Assembly: GCA_040005235.1 (NCBI GenBank)
Contig: JBDTZG010000109.1
Coordinates: forward strand, 1 to 11,695
DNA length: 11,695 bases
Source of the DNA: Acidobacteriota bacterium
GTDB lineage: Bacteria > Acidobacteriota > Thermoanaerobaculia > Multivoradales > UBA5704
Reading direction: 5' to 3'
Part shown: positions 3,659 through 11,695 of the stretch, piece by piece
Position numbering within the stretch: the first letter of the stretch is position 1
How the letters are laid out: every line of letters begins with the position of its first letter
Made by a program: the position numbers and the translations under genes
The notes under the pieces: model-generated
Seen by the model: the letters and a program-made list of their open reading frames with translations, nothing else
Databases searched by the model: none
Told to the model about the DNA's origin: nothing

Positions 3659-4168
3659 TCACAGGCCTAAATCGCACCCTTCGTAGCCTGGCTTGAGTGC
3701 ATCAAGCAGGCGATCCCATATCAACTCACTCCGCAGCGGCCCATGCATCGAACGCCCAACTCGCTCTTGCCGACCCTGGGAAGCGATCTCGAAGCCCCTC
3801 CGGTCATTCCTCCAACGATAAATCGGTGGCTCGGTCCATTCGATTAACTCGAAACCGGTCTCCGGTTCTAGCCATACACGAAGATCCGTGACGGGCCGCG
3901 CATAGAGCTCTGGGTTGTGCCCTAATCTGAGCAAATCGCCACACGGGACGGAGTTGATTATTTCTCTGCGTGGTTTGTAGGGAGCGTCGCCACGCCGCTT
4001 CGCAAAATCCGCCATATCGGAGAGATCTGATGTGGCAAGAGTGTAATGTAGCTGCATGATGTCCGCCACCCTTTTGCCTGAGTACCGAGGCGGAAGGATC
4101 ACTGCGATCTTGTCTGCAACGGCTGCATGGCGACCGCACCACTCCCACGTGACTAGCCACGCCTTCAT
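3659..4168 (-). CDS. Hypothetical protein, about 169 aa, lower GC than neighbours
   Basis: Globular-looking sequence starting 'MKAWLVTWEWCGRHAAVADKIAVILPPRYS'. Start uncertain (ATG 4168, 4192 or 4207). Two hand-counted 60-bp lines gave 50% and 58% GC. Confidence 0.68.
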   Translation of the reverse strand: MKAWLVTWEWCGRHAAVADKIAVILPPRYSGKRVADIMQLHYTLATSDLSDMADFAKRRGDAPYKPRREIINSVPCGDLLRLGHNPELYARPVTDLRVWLEPETGFELIEWTEPPIYRWRNDRRGFEIASQGRQERVGRSMHGPLRSELIWDRLLDALKPGYEGCDLGL

Positions 4169-4283
4169 TGCGTTCGGTCTAGTGCTTCTCATAGCGTTTC
4201 TCACCATTGCCTCTGCAGGGGGAAGACGGTCAACATCCACGCGGCCTTTTGAGGACTCGTTCCATGGGACCTCTCCCGAGGAA

Positions 4284-4817
4284 TCAGGTGAGCTCCGGGT
4301 AGCGTCCGACAAACCGGGTCCAGGAGTCATCCAGGCCGAAGCGCTCGATGAGGCTCGTTACTACGCTCCGGTCGACGGCAGCCTCGCTTAGCAGACGCGA
4401 AACGCGCTCGTAATCTTTCGAGCGGTGAACGTCGAGAGCGATCGCGATCAGGTACTCAGGGGTAAGAACCCAAGTTGGAACTGGCTTCGCGCCACCTTCA
4501 TAGGAAACGGCGACCGCCTGATCGAGAGCTTCCTTGGTGAGGCCCTTGGGGTCCTCGGCGGGGAGGAACTGCACCGGGATTCCTTCGATTACGAGGAACT
4601 CACCTTCGAACGAAAAGCCCTTCTGCGTAAGGTCCGCAAAGAGGGCTCGCAGGGGGTCGAGCGGGGGCGCGTCCGCGGGCACGACGATGAAGACATCGAG
4701 ATCGATCGTGTCGAAGGGCTCGACCCAGAAGATGGCGCCGACGGCACCACCGATCGCGTATTTCTCGATGACGCCACGCGCGACCAGATCGTTCAAGACT
4801 TCGAGGGTAGCTTCCAT
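4284..4817 (-). CDS. Putative nucleotidyltransferase (Pol-beta-superfamily; AbiEii/DUF6036-like), 177 aa
   Basis: Signature 'YAIGGAVGAIFW-EPFDTIDLDVF' (hGG...TxDhD) plus C-terminal 'RSKDYERV' (R-x-K-D motif). Confidence 0.8.
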   Translation of the reverse strand: MEATLEVLNDLVARGVIEKYAIGGAVGAIFWVEPFDTIDLDVFIVVPADAPPLDPLRALFADLTQKGFSFEGEFLVIEGIPVQFLPAEDPKGLTKEALDQAVAVSYEGGAKPVPTWVLTPEYLIAIALDVHRSKDYERVSRLLSEAAVDRSVVTSLIERFGLDDSWTRFVGRYPELT

Positions 4818-7424: not shown

Positions 7425-9533
7425 TTATTGGTACGTCACCACGAGCTGCGGCCGGTTGCCGGAGGTCGAGTTGTTGCCCGAGTAGTAGCCGATGTAGTCG
7501 TTGCCGTTGTCGTCGTTGTCGTCGAGGTTGAAATAGACGCGGAGCTGGGTCGTGCTCGTCTTGCTGATCGCCGCGAGCCCGGAGGCGTTGAGGCTGCCTT
7601 CCGACCAGGTCCCGTCCGTGGCGGCGTTCGTAAGGCTCGTCGCCTGGACCGCCGTCGCCGTCGCCTGGAAGTCGCCCGTCTGGAGCGTCGTCGAGCCCGA
7701 GAAGGCTCCCGTCTGCACGTCGGCCCAGCAGGTGCCGTGGGTCGTGAAGGGGTTGGTGCCGGAGGACGTGCCGCGGCGCAGCCGCAGGGTCGCCGAAAGG
7801 ATCGTGGCACCGTCGGGGATCGGCGAGGTGTCGAACGAGACGACCGTTTTGTACTGGCGGTCCTGGTTGTTGTCGCCCACCCGCAGGGCGCTGGTGGTGG
7901 TGGCGGTGGCGTCGATCGAGCCGCCGACGTTGGTGGTCTCGCCCGATTCGAGCACCCAGCCGTCGCTGGCGGCGACCGAGGTATAGGTGACGACCGTCGG
8001 CGGAACGACCGGCGTGGCCGAGGCTTCGTTCGAGAATCCGCCCTCGCCCTGCGGGTTGGTCCCGGTGACAACGTAGAAATAGGGGGTCCCGTTGGTCAGG
8101 CCGGTGTCGGTATAGGTCGTGACGAGCAGGTTCGTCTGGATCGGCGTGTACGGCCCGCCGGTCGCCGTGCCGCGATAGACGTTGTGGCGGGTGGCGCCGC
8201 TGCCCGCGGTCCAGGAGAGACTGACCTGGCCGTTGCCCGGCGTTGCTACGAGCCCGCTCGGCGCGCCCGGCACGGCGCTGCAATACTGCGTCTGCTTGCC
8301 GATCACGGCGTAGGGGCAGGCGGCCTGTTCGAGCAGGTAGAGGACCGCGGCGCGGTTGCGGGCGGTCTGCGCCGGGATGTCCTCGTCCGGCGGATAGAAG
8401 CCGGGCGACGAGCCGACCGGGTACATCTCGAAGGTATAGGTGAAGATCCGGTGGACGCCGTAGAGCCAGTCGTTGATCGTGCCGTCAGTGACGTACAGGT
8501 CGAAGAGCTGTTGCGGCGTGTAGCCGTTCGTCGCAGCCATCGCCTGGCCCATCGCCACGAAGACGTCGTGATCGTCCTGGGTCATGTCGGCCGGGACGTC
8601 GGTGCTGGTGTAACCGTACGGCCACATCACCAGCTCGCCGTAGGTGTGAAAATCGATGTGGGAGGTGATCTGCTGCGCGCCGCCGATCACGCGGCTGTCG
8701 ACGAAGTCGCGGATCGCCGAGGTCTCGGGCGCCGAGAAGGCCGACGGCCCGCGGTAGGTGGTGCTGCTCGTCGAGCCGCTGCTGCCGCCGCAGCAACCCC
8801 ACCGGTAGCCGAAGTTGCGGTTCAGATCGGTGCCGACGTTTGACGAGCCGGCGTTCGGCTGGCGGTTCTTGCGCCAGGAGGCGTACGACCCGGTCGCGAT
8901 GTCGAACTCGCCGCCGTCCGGATTGGCATCGAAGACCAGCCAGATCTCGCGGTTGTCGACCAGGTTGGTGATCTGGGTATCGATGCCGTACTCGTCGGTG
9001 AGCATCCTCAAGGTATAGAGCCCCATCTCGACGGTCAGATGCTCGCGGGCGTGCTGGTGATGGGTGAAGAGGACCTCGGGCTCGGCCTCGTCGGTGCCCA
9101 CGTTGTCGGAGATCTTGACCAACCAGAGCGTGCGCCCTTCATAGGCCAGGCCGACGCTCGACAGGGAGACGATCGACGGATGGTCGAACGCGGCCTGCTG
9201 CAGCTCGGCCACCATCTCGGCATAGTCGTGGTAGTTCGAGTCGGCCGCCGGGAAGATGTCTGAAGGCGGCACCGGCATCTGAAAGCTGACGACCTTCAAA
9301 CCCAAGCCCGCCAAAGCCTTGAGCTCGGAATTCGTGGCTTCGACCAGGACGTAGTCGCGGCCGACCTCGAAGATGCCCGCGCCGGTCCCGGCAATGGCGG
9401 AGCGGGTCTTGCCGTCGGAGACGTTCGAGATCTTGTAGGTAGCGGGTCTCTCGAACGGCTGGGCGGCGGCAGAAGCCGCCAGGCCAAGCCCAAGCAACAG
9501 CAACAACGCGAGCGCAAGCCCTTGGTTTTTCAA
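7425..9533 (-). CDS. Secreted M14 zinc carboxypeptidase (carboxypeptidase T-like) with FN3 and C-terminal DNRLRE-like domain, 702 aa
   Basis: Signal peptide and propeptide; 'HAREH' (HxxE), 'WRKNR', 'DLNRNF', 'IDFHTY', catalytic 'FEMYP'; FN3 '[20 protein letters not shown]...YFYVVT'; C-terminal '[19 protein letters not shown]...RPQLVVTY'. TTG start with GAAAGGAG RBS. Confidence 0.93.
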
Positions 9534-9777: not shown

Positions 9778-9803
9778 CCCTCACCGGCGGCACCCTCTCT
9801 CAC

Positions 9804-10095
9804 CCCAGGGCATCGGCCTTCGGCCTCAGCCCCGGGCTAGGCTCTCCCGGCCCGTTGGGCCGGCCGGGCCGCCCGCGACAACCTGGCGTGGAAAGGTGGC
9901 GAGCCCTGCACCCCGCCGGGCTCCGGGGGGCGCGTTGGCATCGACCGCGATGAGGCGCTGAGGAGGCACCGGCAATCCGGATCCGGCCCAACGGGCCGGG
10001 AGAACCTAGCCCAGGGCTGAGGCCGAAGGCCGATGCCCTGGGGCTCTGGGTTGAAGGTCACCACCTCCCGGCGGCCTGAAAGGCCGCGAGAACCC
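9804..10095. repeat. Left REP/REPIN-like cluster
   Basis: 60-bp unit CCCAGGGCATCGGCCTTCGGCCTCAGCCCYGGGCTAGG...GGCCCGTTGGGCCGG at 9804-9863, an inverted copy at 9983-10042, then the short hairpin GCGGCCTGAAAGGCCGC at 10071-10087. Confidence 0.9.
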
Positions 10096-10138
10096 AGGCT
10101 TGACAGATCCCCAGACGGGTGCTTGAGTCCCCGGCGCC

Positions 10139-10591
10139 ATGGCGCAATCCCTCTCCAAAATCTACGTTCATCTCATCTTCTCGACGAAGGACCGCGAGCG
10201 AACCCTGCCCGACGAGATTCGCCCCGATCTCCATGCCTACATGGGCGGTACGCTCAAAGGCCTCGGCTGTCTACCGATTGAAATCAACACCGAGCCCGAC
10301 CATTTGCACGCTCTGTTTCTCCTCGCACGGACCGAGGCGCTGAGCGACGTCGTCGGCCAACTCAAGAAAAGCTCGAACGACTGGCTGCGCAGCCAAGGCC
10401 CGGGGTTCGCAAGTTTTTTCTGGCAGGCGGGCTTCGGGGCATTTTCGGTGAGCCAGTCGCAAGTCGAAGACGTTCGGGCTTACATCCGCAACCAACGCGA
10501 GCATCACCGTGTCAAGCCGTTTCAAGAGGAGCTCCGTGCGTTCCTCGAGGCCTATGAAATCGAATTTGACGAGCGCTACGTGTGGGCCTGA
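10139..10591 (+). CDS. tnpA: IS200/IS605-family Y1 HUH transposase (REP-associated), 150 aa
   Basis: 'YVHLIFSTKDR', HUH motif 'DHLH', 'LKKSS', 'FFWQAGFGAFSVS', catalytic Tyr in 'YIRNQREHH'. A perfect TTGACA lies at 10100-10105 upstream. Confidence 0.93.
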   Translation: MAQSLSKIYVHLIFSTKDRERTLPDEIRPDLHAYMGGTLKGLGCLPIEINTEPDHLHALFLLARTEALSDVVGQLKKSSNDWLRSQGPGFASFFWQAGFGAFSVSQSQVEDVRAYIRNQREHHRVKPFQEELRAFLEAYEIEFDERYVWA

Positions 10592-10595
10592 AAGC

Positions 10596-10865
10596 TCTCG
10601 CGGCCTTTCAGGCCGCCTTTCTGTGGGGCCATTCAACCCAGGGCATCGGCCTTCGGCCTCAGCCCTGGGCTAGGCTCTCCCGGCCCGTTGGGCCGGACGG
10701 ACCGCCCGCGACAACCTGGCATGGAACGGCCCGAGGGCAAGGGTCACACCCTCCGGCGCCTGAAAGGCCGGGAGAATTTAGCCCAAGGCTGAGGCCGAAG
10801 GCCGATGCCCTGGGTCAATGGCAAGGGTCACCCACCCCTGGCGGCATGAAAGGCCGCGAGAACCC
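10596..10865. repeat. Right REP/REPIN-like cluster
   Basis: 10596-10617 is the exact reverse complement of 10070-10091. Long unit at 10637-10696, inverted variant at about 10755-10814, and a degenerate short hairpin at 10840-10865. Confidence 0.9.
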
Positions 10866-10871
10866 CCGCCG

Positions 10872-11695
10872 CTACGGCCGTGTCTCCACCGCCGGAATCG
10901 GCGTGCTGCAATTGCCGTGGTACATCTTCACCGGCCCCGCGCACTGGTGATAGGCGTCGAAGACGCTTTCGTATCCTTTGTCCTGCCACCAGGTGCAGAG
11001 CTGGCGGTTCCAGGCGCAGTCGAGATGGTAGAAAAGCTCTTCGTGCTCCAGGGCGAGGAGGGTGTAAAAGTCCTGGTCGCCCAGGTGGCCTTTGAAATGG
11101 TATTTCTCGACCAGGGCGGCGACGGCTTGCGGCTCCAACGCGTGGTTGAAGACGTCGGACTTGCGCAGCTTGCCGAGGTCGAGCAGCGTCGCTCCCGCGT
11201 TGAATCCTTGGAAGCCCTCGGGCCGCGGGGAGCCGAGCCGGGTACCGGGATGACCGTCGCGGTAGATCGTCAGCACGTGCCGGTAGACCGGTTGCAGCTC
11301 CGGCCCCAGACCGATCAGGTTGTCTTTGCCGAAGCGGTCGAACTCCTCAAAGAGCAGGTAAAGATTGGCCTCGAAGCGGACATCGAAGTCGAGCTTCGCG
11401 ATCCGCTCGATCTCCGGCAGGAGGCGGTGCATGCCGAGGGAGAGGAAGAAGATCGAATCGTTGTAGTAGGAGCCCTTGCCGGAGCTGAAATGCTTCTGCA
11501 TGTCTTCCACGATAGGGAAGATCTTCGCCGTCCATTCGTCCTTGTCGTGGAACACGAAGTGGACGCCCGGGCGCCGGTACGCCTGGAGGAATTTCTCCCC
11601 GTACGCCTTGCTTCCCGGGTCGGCGACGAAGTGCAGGGTGAGCTGCACGCCCGGCGGCAGCTCCAGGTGGCGGAAGAGCGATTCGATGCAGATCG
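10872..11695 (-). CDS. GT8 glycosyltransferase, xyloside xylosyltransferase 1 (XXYLT1)-like, 5'-partial
   Basis: The frame is open to the window edge (ICIESLFRHLELPPGVQLTLHFV...). DXD motif 'LDFD', 'GFNAG', 'HLGDQDFYTL', 'CAWNRQLCTWW', 'YHGNCSTPIP' and 'MQKHFSSGKGSYYNDSIFFLS' are collinear with animal XXYLT1 as recalled. TAG at 10874-10872. Confidence 0.88.
   Translation of the reverse strand, partial: ICIESLFRHLELPPGVQLTLHFVADPGSKAYGEKFLQAYRRPGVHFVFHDKDEWTAKIFPIVEDMQKHFSSGKGSYYNDSIFFLSLGMHRLLPEIERIAKLDFDVRFEANLYLLFEEFDRFGKDNLIGLGPELQPVYRHVLTIYRDGHPGTRLGSPRPEGFQGFNAGATLLDLGKLRKSDVFNHALEPQAVAALVEKYHFKGHLGDQDFYTLLALEHEELFYHLDCAWNRQLCTWWQDKGYESVFDAYHQCAGPVKMYHGNCSTPIPAVETRP

Follow-up and report, generated by a model that had tools for sequence, protein, structure and literature searches.

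Contig JBDTZG010000109.1, an 11,695-nucleotide stretch from an Acidobacteriota bacterium which is referred to here over its whole length as the window, terminates inside a glycosyltransferase gene related to animal XXYLT1. The window is contig C26 of its assembly (G000; 6.2 Mb in 140 contigs, 100% complete and 0.33% contaminated as judged from marker genes). On the minus strand the frame at 10872-11693 is open over 273 codons, with a stop at 10872-10874 and no start within the contig; the contig terminates at base 11695, and the 5' end of the gene lies beyond it. The neighbouring genes are ordinary bacterial ones according to Pfam, and encode an IS200-like Y1 transposase, an M14 carboxypeptidase, an alpha/beta hydrolase, a MacB/FtsX-type permease and a LuxR-type regulator. 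An earlier note on this DNA had read the truncated frame as a bacterial homologue of XXYLT1, and all eight of the sequence blocks that it quoted are found in the minus-strand translation, in the order in which it gave them.

The homology is borne out by sequence searches. The top PDB match of the window protein is mouse XXYLT1 (4wlg; 315 bits by phmmer, E-value in Table 1), and the alignment is collinear over nearly the whole catalytic domain, with residues 2-267 of the query set against 34-304 of the chain; the runner-up, LARGE1, follows at E 4.3e-08. BLASTP identity to vertebrate XXYLT1 is 54% for chicken and 52% for both shrew and shark, and to invertebrate homologues 48% (brachiopod), 45% (coral), 43% (rotifer) and 41% (jellyfish), while mouse GXYLT2 shares 24% identity across 145 residues. 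In a tree rooted on GXYLT the window protein lies inside the XXYLT clade with 100/100 support. Its catalytic motifs are intact: in the alignment with 4wlg there is identity throughout the DxD motif and the H-L-G-D-Q-D block, at the histidine of Y-H-G-N-C and at four cysteines. A chain offset of 86 maps the aligned 4wlg residues onto D225 and D227 (DxD), L327 and Q330 (H-L-G-D-Q-D) and H382, the metal and donor-site residues of mouse XXYLT1.

The Pfam model Glyco_transf_8 (PF01501) scores the window protein, which is incomplete at its 5' end, at 14.5 bits (E 0.026), below the gathering cut-off of 24.3. A stand-alone orthologue in a related genome (L004:9716-10819) reaches 21.7 bits, also below the cut-off, and a precomputed PF01501 assignment is present in most of the animal XXYLT1 proteins listed. 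NCBIfam models give no match for the window protein. The low PF01501 score and the lack of an NCBIfam match agree with the claim of the earlier note that the protein differs from ordinary bacterial GT8 enzymes. The likely form of the missing N-terminus can be seen in P0002, a full-length stand-alone relative of 339 residues encoded on a 1509-nt contig and 98% identical to the window protein. It starts with a short hydrophobic signal-like segment, taken by eye for a signal peptide or an anchor, and continues with an Ala/Pro-rich linker; the earlier note had looked to the upstream sequence for elements of this kind. Judged by its sequence, the frame in the window encodes the last 273 residues of a true XXYLT1 orthologue from Acidobacteriota, and it belongs to the XXYLT1 subfamily by every sequence test applied.

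The XXYLT-like gene is truly bacterial DNA. Genes were called with a caller of our own based on GC content at third codon positions (GC3). The frame had been described as intronless and rich in GC codons like its neighbours, and its codon-position GC of 0.64/0.36/0.87 indeed stands beside 0.57/0.50/0.91 for the M14 peptidase and 0.70/0.48/0.86 for the permease. When one genome of each prokaryote species was scanned, ten loci emerged with proteins 81-95% identical to that of the window, all in metagenome-assembled genomes of Acidobacteriota (labelled Thermoanaerobaculia, Holophagales or Acidobacteriota); the contigs that bear them include a 7.66 Mb chromosome, an 8.38 Mb contig and a 2.35 Mb contig. 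By matching coordinates, the closest locus (L003) lies on contig 3 of G777, a genome of the same genus as that of the window. Downstream of the orthologue in L003 come an M14 peptidase and then a hydrolase, in the order and orientation seen in the window, and the window M14 peptidase is 88% identical to this neighbour.

Two metagenome runs from one study, labelled root and soil, contain 80-81% of the sampled words of the window and may represent the sample from which it came; no RNA dataset is among the runs listed as containing the stretch. Logan contigs of 1507 and 1509 nt span 10787/10789-11695 and extend about 600 nt past the window end. Differences between the metagenome contigs and the window are concentrated in the final 200 bases, suggesting that strain variation broke the assembly at this point. 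With regard to contig coverage of 10800-10900, which the earlier note had singled out, contigs run from 10787/10789 into the gene but none of those listed crosses the REP-like repeat block, which is multi-copy (contig depth of 150-296 at 10596-10865 in the two runs), to join the transposase to the gene. This gap might speak for animal DNA contaminating the bin or misjoined at the REP repeat, a chimera that the earlier note had named as fatal to its reading. Such an origin is nevertheless hardly credible. The frame has no introns and a GC3 of 0.87, its 81-95% identical orthologues lie deep within megabase-scale bacterial contigs, and the REP elements are native to the genome, with copies on six other contigs of G000 (C136, C99, C21, C126, C82 and C64). 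The order of the XXYLT-like and M14 genes is kept in relatives, and this conserved order makes a false join at the REP block implausible. In addition, the GC content of the animal homologues recovered from metagenomes is 23-43%, and several of them align in separate pieces, consistent with introns. Contamination or chimerism was rejected on the grounds of bacterial codon usage, synteny with relatives and native REP repeats.

In related genomes the orthologue forms part of a cassette. The genes of these relatives were likewise called by GC3 and scanned with Pfam, and the tally covers 12 related loci. The order is an EOGT-like GT61 gene (at some loci), an MFS gene, a gene for an EGF-repeat protein, a fusion of a GXYLT-like GT8 domain and a POGLUT1-like GT90 domain, the XXYLT-like domain and, usually, the M14 carboxypeptidase. 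GT90 lies directly upstream of the XXYLT domain in 11 of the 12 loci; EGF repeats are present in ten, the GXYLT-like domain in nine, MFS in eight, the adjacent M14 carboxypeptidase in seven, the EOGT-like GT61 in five and a second, divergent GT8-GT90 paralogue in four. Most of the misses are due to a contig ending before the position concerned. Depending on the locus, the XXYLT-like domain is either fused to GT8-GT90 or encoded by a separate gene, and stand-alone genes also occur within complete cassettes (for example L004 and L008). Several genomes encode a single GXYLT-POGLUT1-XXYLT polypeptide of about 980-1140 residues. In L007 one 977-residue frame carries GT8 (35-268), GT90 (335-670, E 2.1e-81) and the XXYLT-like domain, and in the search of the same genome as G820 the fused frame is open across 1017 codons without a stop.

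The cassette domains resemble individual animal enzymes. In PDB searches with the GT90 domain, human POGLUT1 (5l0r) is matched at E 2.8e-85 and Drosophila Rumi (5f84) at 1.7e-84, compared to 6.9e-25 for POGLUT2. For the N-terminal GT8 domain, the matches listed are GXYLT1/2 homologues, mostly from animals, with which it shares 45-54% identity. They number at least 120, all with E from 1e-107 to 1e-92; among the named ones, animal GXYLT1/2 and UDP-xylose:glucoside xylosyltransferase predominate, a few others having received a different automatic name or being termed hypothetical. The GXYLT clade is set apart from XXYLT with 100/100 support. The GT61 protein (476 residues) matches EOGT (9wjk) at E 3.6e-49 over query residues 44-466, as against 7e-05 for POMGNT2, and Pfam GT61 at E 1.6e-14. 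In the ESM Atlas all 30 of its 30 matches fall in one GT61 family set, of which the three shown are EOGT clusters with 100% eukaryotic taxa.

Variants of this arrangement, and further genes around it, were also seen. In L009 the EOGT-like gene is in one frame with the MFS gene. P0003, a stand-alone XXYLT-like enzyme (87% identical) likely encoded in L016, carries at its N-terminus one EGF-like domain (Pfam hEGF) from which the O-glucose serine is absent. A secreted Kelch-repeat beta-propeller (L008:2755-3903; Pfam KLHDC2/KLHL20, attractin-type) is encoded a few kb upstream of the cassette in a complete chromosome and, by its Pfam matches, is another eukaryote-flavoured domain near the cassette.

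The animal O-glucose pathway on EGF repeats runs from POGLUT1 through GXYLT to XXYLT1, and the POGLUT1 sequon is C1-x-S-x-[PA]-C2 (PMC3675014). Ten loci were scanned with a regular expression for six-cysteine EGF-like repeats, and in nine of them open frames with at least two such repeats were found, 27 repeats in total. The sequon starts 23 of these 27 cassette repeats. At the other end, 25 of the 27 finish with C5-x-x-G-x-[ST]-G-x-x-C6, the EOGT consensus. The O-fucose pattern occurs in a single cassette repeat; the O-fucosyltransferase family PF10250 was found in none of five genomes, but the control genomes were silent too and the search is uninformative.

The secreted cassette protein consists of an N-terminal C-H-V-P-P-G-N-P module, Dictyostelium-type cysteine repeats and EGF repeats of the calcium-binding type (Pfam EGF E 5.5e-29). 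The cysteine repeats that follow the module are of the CTDC type, and short secreted paralogues which consist of the module only are scattered around the cassettes (Table 1). Pfam gave no match for the short paralogue in L003, and no family covering the module was found in it. The earlier note had raised the prospect of an uncharacterised bacterial xylosylation pathway, and the POGLUT1-like, GXYLT-like and sometimes EOGT-like enzymes that adjoin the orthologue in relatives, together with the sequon-bearing EGF proteins, are in keeping with this. On these homologies, an animal-type Glc-Xyl-Xyl pathway for the glycosylation of EGF repeats appears to exist in bacteria.

The distribution of the system is narrow. 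At E <= 1e-20 the fused protein matches 12 of the 92 genomes of the window's family, G000 included; among good-quality genomes the count is 9/56, in 4 of 11 genera. The other 11 matching genomes of the family all match within the GT8-GT90 part. An even sample of the class yields matches in 3/401 genomes, all from the window's family, and a sample of the phylum in 1/401, this being G000 itself. Within the window's genus the cassette is present in two of the seven other genomes searched and not in the remaining five. No match to the bacterial proteins was found among plasmids and phages, the nearest ESM Atlas clusters are 100% eukaryotic, and in the homologue searches the named homologues are all animal among the matches listed. 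A second bacterial-looking set of XXYLT-like proteins (P0007-P0009), which looks high in GC and is 60% identical to the window protein, forms a sister bacterial subclade. Among its members, one is encoded on a contig of 12.8 Mb, and one shows an N-terminus that by eye is both twin-arginine-like and lipobox-like. A metagenome scan built from this set returned only acidobacterial-type loci (L016 and L017) and low-GC loci of eukaryote type.

The relationship to the animal enzymes was examined in a maximum-likelihood tree (LG+C20+F+G4) of 48 rows rooted on GXYLT. These comprise 13 bacterial, 11 vertebrate, 14 named invertebrate and three eukaryote-type metagenome sequences and an outgroup of seven GXYLT sequences, the invertebrates having been chosen for spread among at least 120 matches listed. 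Near-duplicate bacterial sequences (L005, L006, L014, L016, L017 and P0003-P0005) were omitted after a 50-row quick tree, as were partial or redundant metagenome sequences (L018, L020, L024, L025 and L026) and three vertebrates; arthropod, nematode, sponge and protist sequences did not enter the trees. The branch between the XXYLT clade (41 rows, 100/100) and GXYLT measures about four changes per site. Within the XXYLT clade the cnidarians branch first, bilaterians and bacteria group together (95/89), the protostomes form a group (85/96), and the vertebrates (95/83) join a monophyletic bacterial group of 13 rows (100/100) at 100/99.

An import from an animal lineage long ago is the favoured explanation on this evidence, because of the narrow bacterial range, the fact that every named homologue listed is animal and the purely eukaryotic nature of the nearest Atlas clusters. 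After import the genes would have undergone full amelioration of their codons, domain fusion and duplication; in the GXYLT-domain tree, the second GT8-GT90 paralogue is a duplication within bacteria. As regards gene structure in possible donors, L031 and L032 hold animal XXYLT1 genes in four pieces over about 2.2 kb, as introns would give. On other low-GC metagenome contigs one uninterrupted piece of about 290 residues is found, at L018:682-1551 (84% identical to a coral protein) and L022:610-1488 (which groups with jellyfish). Since some animal homologues align as a single piece, donors with intron-free genes are conceivable.

We consider it probable that the XXYLT1 orthologue is the last enzyme of a cassette which builds Xyl-Xyl-Glc stepwise on exported EGF proteins, and that it descends from an old animal import. 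In this scheme the enzymes and the EGF-repeat proteins would be exported, and the EGF repeats would fold and form their disulfides in the periplasm. The POGLUT1-like domain would then transfer glucose onto the serine of C1-x-S-x-P/A-C2, and the GXYLT-like domain would add the first xylose. Finally, the enzyme encoded in the window would add the second, alpha-1,3-linked xylose from UDP-xylose, giving Xyl-Xyl-Glc-O-Ser as on Notch. The UDP-sugars may be supplied via the MFS protein of the cassette.

Several observations weigh against this reading, and the first of them come from the trees. An approximately unbiased (AU) test does not reject a topology in which the 28 animal rows form one clade with the bacteria outside (log-likelihood difference 4.83, p 0.106), and a tree of the GXYLT domain (35 rows) does not resolve the place of the bacterial group (99/92), which falls in a basal polytomy together with sequences from vertebrates, lophotrochozoans and amphioxus. 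The animal-to-bacterium transfer that the earlier note proposed is thus upheld in so far as the bacteria nest within Metazoa in the best tree, but its direction is favoured rather than proven. The family could instead be old in bacteria, the animal enzymes being derived from there or from a common ancestor, with the bacterial clade as a sister lineage. Besides the AU result and GXYLT-like domains which are not nested within any animal group, this would be consistent with the fully bacterial codon usage and with the divergence of the two bacterial subclades; with just 60% identity between them, the lineage in bacteria is no recent one. We nevertheless regard this alternative as unlikely. A family long resident in bacteria is difficult to reconcile with a range of 12 in 92 genomes of one family, no other family of the class sample and only G000 in the phylum sample, nor is it favoured by the lack of matches in plasmids and phages or by the exclusively animal names and eukaryotic clusters of the homologues. 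The best tree places the bacteria within Bilateria, and four animal-type EGF-modifying enzymes and EGF repeats co-occur here alone.

A second set of objections concerns the window's own genome. The cassette has been seen in relatives only, the nearest being the same-genus genome, and the G000 assembly contains no GT90 domain, GXYLT-like domain, sequon-bearing EGF repeat or CHVPPGN-type protein. The searches for these partners (with P0123, P0122 and Pfam GT90, by tblastn with all cassette genes and by six-frame regular expressions for EGF repeats and CHVPPGN) returned the XXYLT-like piece only. The genome-wide search for pathway genes advocated in the earlier note gave a UXS1-like candidate and no GT90, GXYLT-like or sequon-bearing EGF proteins. 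These genes are absent from the assembly, which does not imply absence from the organism: the contig ends inside the gene, and as a result the DNA upstream of it is missing. By analogy with the same-genus relative, the organism would carry the rest of the cassette off the contig. It has also been considered that the gene in G000 is an orphan remnant, or one recruited to act on something else, for example a polysaccharide or lipopolysaccharide, outside any EGF pathway. In agreement with this are the lack of partners and EGF substrates in the assembly, the stand-alone form of the near-identical P0002 with its own N-terminal hydrophobic segment, the insertion of a transposase with REP elements beside the gene and the presence of the cassette in only two of seven other genomes of the genus. 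Against it, the frame is intact and shares 98% identity with a copy found in two metagenome runs, and the catalytic motifs are conserved. Moreover, L003 of the same genus has a whole cassette upstream and the same genes downstream, and a stand-alone gene is also what L004 and L008 have inside complete cassettes. The orphan or recruited gene therefore seems quite unlikely.

The remaining objections concern export and donor supply. Signal peptides were judged by eye alone: P0002, P0123 and P0122 have a hydrophobic segment at the N-terminus, and the N-termini of P0005 and P0008 look lipobox-like or twin-arginine-like. Of eight short-chain dehydrogenase/reductase candidates in G000, two were compared against the PDB. 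One, at C35:102701-103624, is a candidate UDP-glucuronate decarboxylase with human UXS1 as its best match (E 9e-56; 192.7 bits, versus 155.7 for ArnA); the similarity is moderate, and for one related model the score is below the NCBIfam cut-off (190.8 versus 294). The other, at C7:2900-3817, was rejected as a UDP-xylose synthase, being GDP-sugar-reductase-like by PDB. Leloir-type enzymes acting in the periplasm need nucleotide sugars there, and bacteria are not known to have such a supply. The sugars would have to pass the inner membrane, and the conserved MFS gene is the obvious candidate for their transport, but searches with its protein gave no informative relatives, with 37-38 bits for Pfam MFS_1 and no PDB or NCBIfam match.

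Being so close to its animal counterpart and carrying an export signal, as judged by eye, the enzyme might also be a secreted effector acting on the EGF-repeat proteins of an animal host, and the earlier note had allowed for a host-modifying enzyme. The likely substrates are encoded beside the enzymes, however, and this leaves that option unsupported. The candidate substrates in the same cassette bear the sequon, most of the stretch is found in two runs that carry the labels root and soil metagenome, and an effector would need UDP-xylose and a pre-made Xyl-Glc acceptor, which would be unavailable outside a cell. This alternative is very improbable.

Returning to the reading of stepwise glycosylation within the bacterium itself, O-glucose stabilises EGF repeats. 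This effect and the secreted peptidases that flank the cassette lead us to guess that the glycosylation may serve to stabilise secreted matrix or adhesion proteins or to protect them from proteases. A more far-reaching version, which we put forward tentatively and as somewhat doubtful, is that soil Acidobacteriota possess a complete periplasmic EGF O-glycosylation of animal type, with EGF substrates of their own and with UDP-glucose and UDP-xylose delivered through the inner membrane via the MFS protein, acquired through a multi-gene import from metazoans. If true, it would be the first periplasmic protein glycosylation pathway of the Leloir type fed by nucleotide sugars, and a multi-gene import of a module for the modification of metazoan signalling proteins.

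The features located in the window and in the related loci are collected in Table 1. The region 9800-10865, with its transposase and repeat blocks, has the appearance of a REP-associated transposase accompanied by its own family of repeats. The transposase, inserted in the window between the XXYLT-like and M14 genes, is missing from the syntenic L003, which has a gene for a small secreted protein where the window carries the transposase and REP family. The M14 protein shows a weak fn3 match below the Pfam cut-off (20.6 versus 25 bits). Its C-terminal part of about 180-340 residues recurs at C121:21934-22884 and C113:31001-31549 of G000 with 37-55% identity, which suggests a shared sorting or binding domain. 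Further from the gene, GC content falls to 0.58-0.61 between 3501 and 5500, compared to 0.65-0.71 elsewhere in the window. The minus-strand frames at 3659-4330 and 4284-4817 have no Pfam match, and this region is only partly common to L003.

Table 1. Features of the window and of related loci. Positions without a prefix refer to the window; a prefix beginning with L denotes a related locus.
Feature	Position	Strand	Evidence
XXYLT1-like GT8 glycosyltransferase gene, 3' part (273 codons and stop)	10872..11695	-	translation; PDB XXYLT1 E 5.2e-93
REP-like palindromic repeats, between glycosyltransferase stop codon and transposase	10596..10865	.	inverted and direct repeats
IS200-like Y1 transposase gene, REP-associated type	10139..10591	+	Pfam Y1_Tnp E 7.4e-24
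Further block of these REP-like repeats, across the transposase gene from the first	9800..10095	.	families D1, D2, D4; pairs I1, I2, I4
Secreted M14 zinc carboxypeptidase, conserved downstream neighbour of the cassette	7425..9533	-	Pfam Peptidase_M14 E 4.4e-62
C-H-V-P-P-G-N-P module proteins	L003:2653-3882; L003:7005-7487(-); L008:10926-11390(-); L004:18199-18609; L010:4096-4947; L006:2-901		
EOGT-like genes	L010:5027-6454; L004:2213-3511; L009:4084-5467; L012:2518-3822; L017:4967-6426		full-length EOGT homologue

The Glc-Xyl-Xyl glycan of EGF repeats is seen as an invention of animals, linked to Notch, Crumbs and clotting factors. A search of the literature, in full text and partly in titles and abstracts, found no report of bacterial XXYLT, GXYLT, POGLUT1 or EOGT homologues, although one metagenome protein has already been auto-annotated as 'xylosyl alpha-1,3-xylosyltransferase'. 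A bacterial cassette with sequon-bearing EGF substrates would extend this glycan to another domain of life. It would also represent an unusually rich transfer between domains, with several unlinked animal genes and a substrate module brought into one operon-like cluster, and it poses a testable problem, namely the route by which nucleotide sugars could reach a periplasmic Leloir enzyme. The enzymes themselves, being compact, intron-free and partly fused, may be useful for the preparation of defined EGF glycoforms and for structural work; for GXYLT, no solved structure of its own was matched in the PDB searches.

Compared with animal XXYLT1, the window protein has a collinear catalytic domain and the same motifs and falls in the same clade, and relatives pair its orthologue with POGLUT1-like and GXYLT-like enzymes and with EGF repeats that carry the sequon. 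The bacterial form differs in being intronless, in its high-GC codons and in its fusion, in several genomes, into a GXYLT-POGLUT1-XXYLT polypeptide. XXYLT1 is a type II membrane protein of the endoplasmic reticulum, an organelle which bacteria lack; its N-terminus is a long type II stem, whereas that of the bacterial protein is a signal-like segment, as judged by eye. GXYLT1/2 and LARGE1 have the GT8 fold family in common with the window protein, at the distances given above (24% identity to GXYLT2 and E 4e-08 to LARGE1). The bacterial GT8 lipopolysaccharide transferases, of the RfaI/RfaJ/LgtC type, share the superfamily and the DxD motif, but the window protein stays below the PF01501 cut-off and a fused relative scores 19 bits against the NCBIfam lipopolysaccharide galactosyltransferase model, whose cut-off is 461.

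At the level of the pathway, homologues of all three enzymes of the Glc-Xyl-Xyl branch are present, joined in 5 of the 12 loci by an EOGT homologue, and the EGF repeats carry the sequon, as in the animal Notch-type pathway. The bacterial genes differ from the animal ones in being clustered and partly fused and in operating without an endoplasmic reticulum. Eukaryotes use SLC35-type nucleotide-sugar transporters, while the bacterial cassette includes an MFS gene. Known protein O-glycosylation in bacteria is carried out by periplasmic oligosaccharyltransferase systems, which are lipid-linked, or by cytoplasmic systems of the NGT/HMW1C type. The loci scanned with Pfam showed no genes for an oligosaccharyltransferase or a lipid carrier. 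Like these known systems, the cassette is a dedicated gene cluster for the glycosylation of secreted or surface proteins, as far as its gene content suggests. Unlike them, its enzymes would be soluble Leloir glycosyltransferases of animal type (GT-A and GT90), predicted to act stepwise on folded domains.

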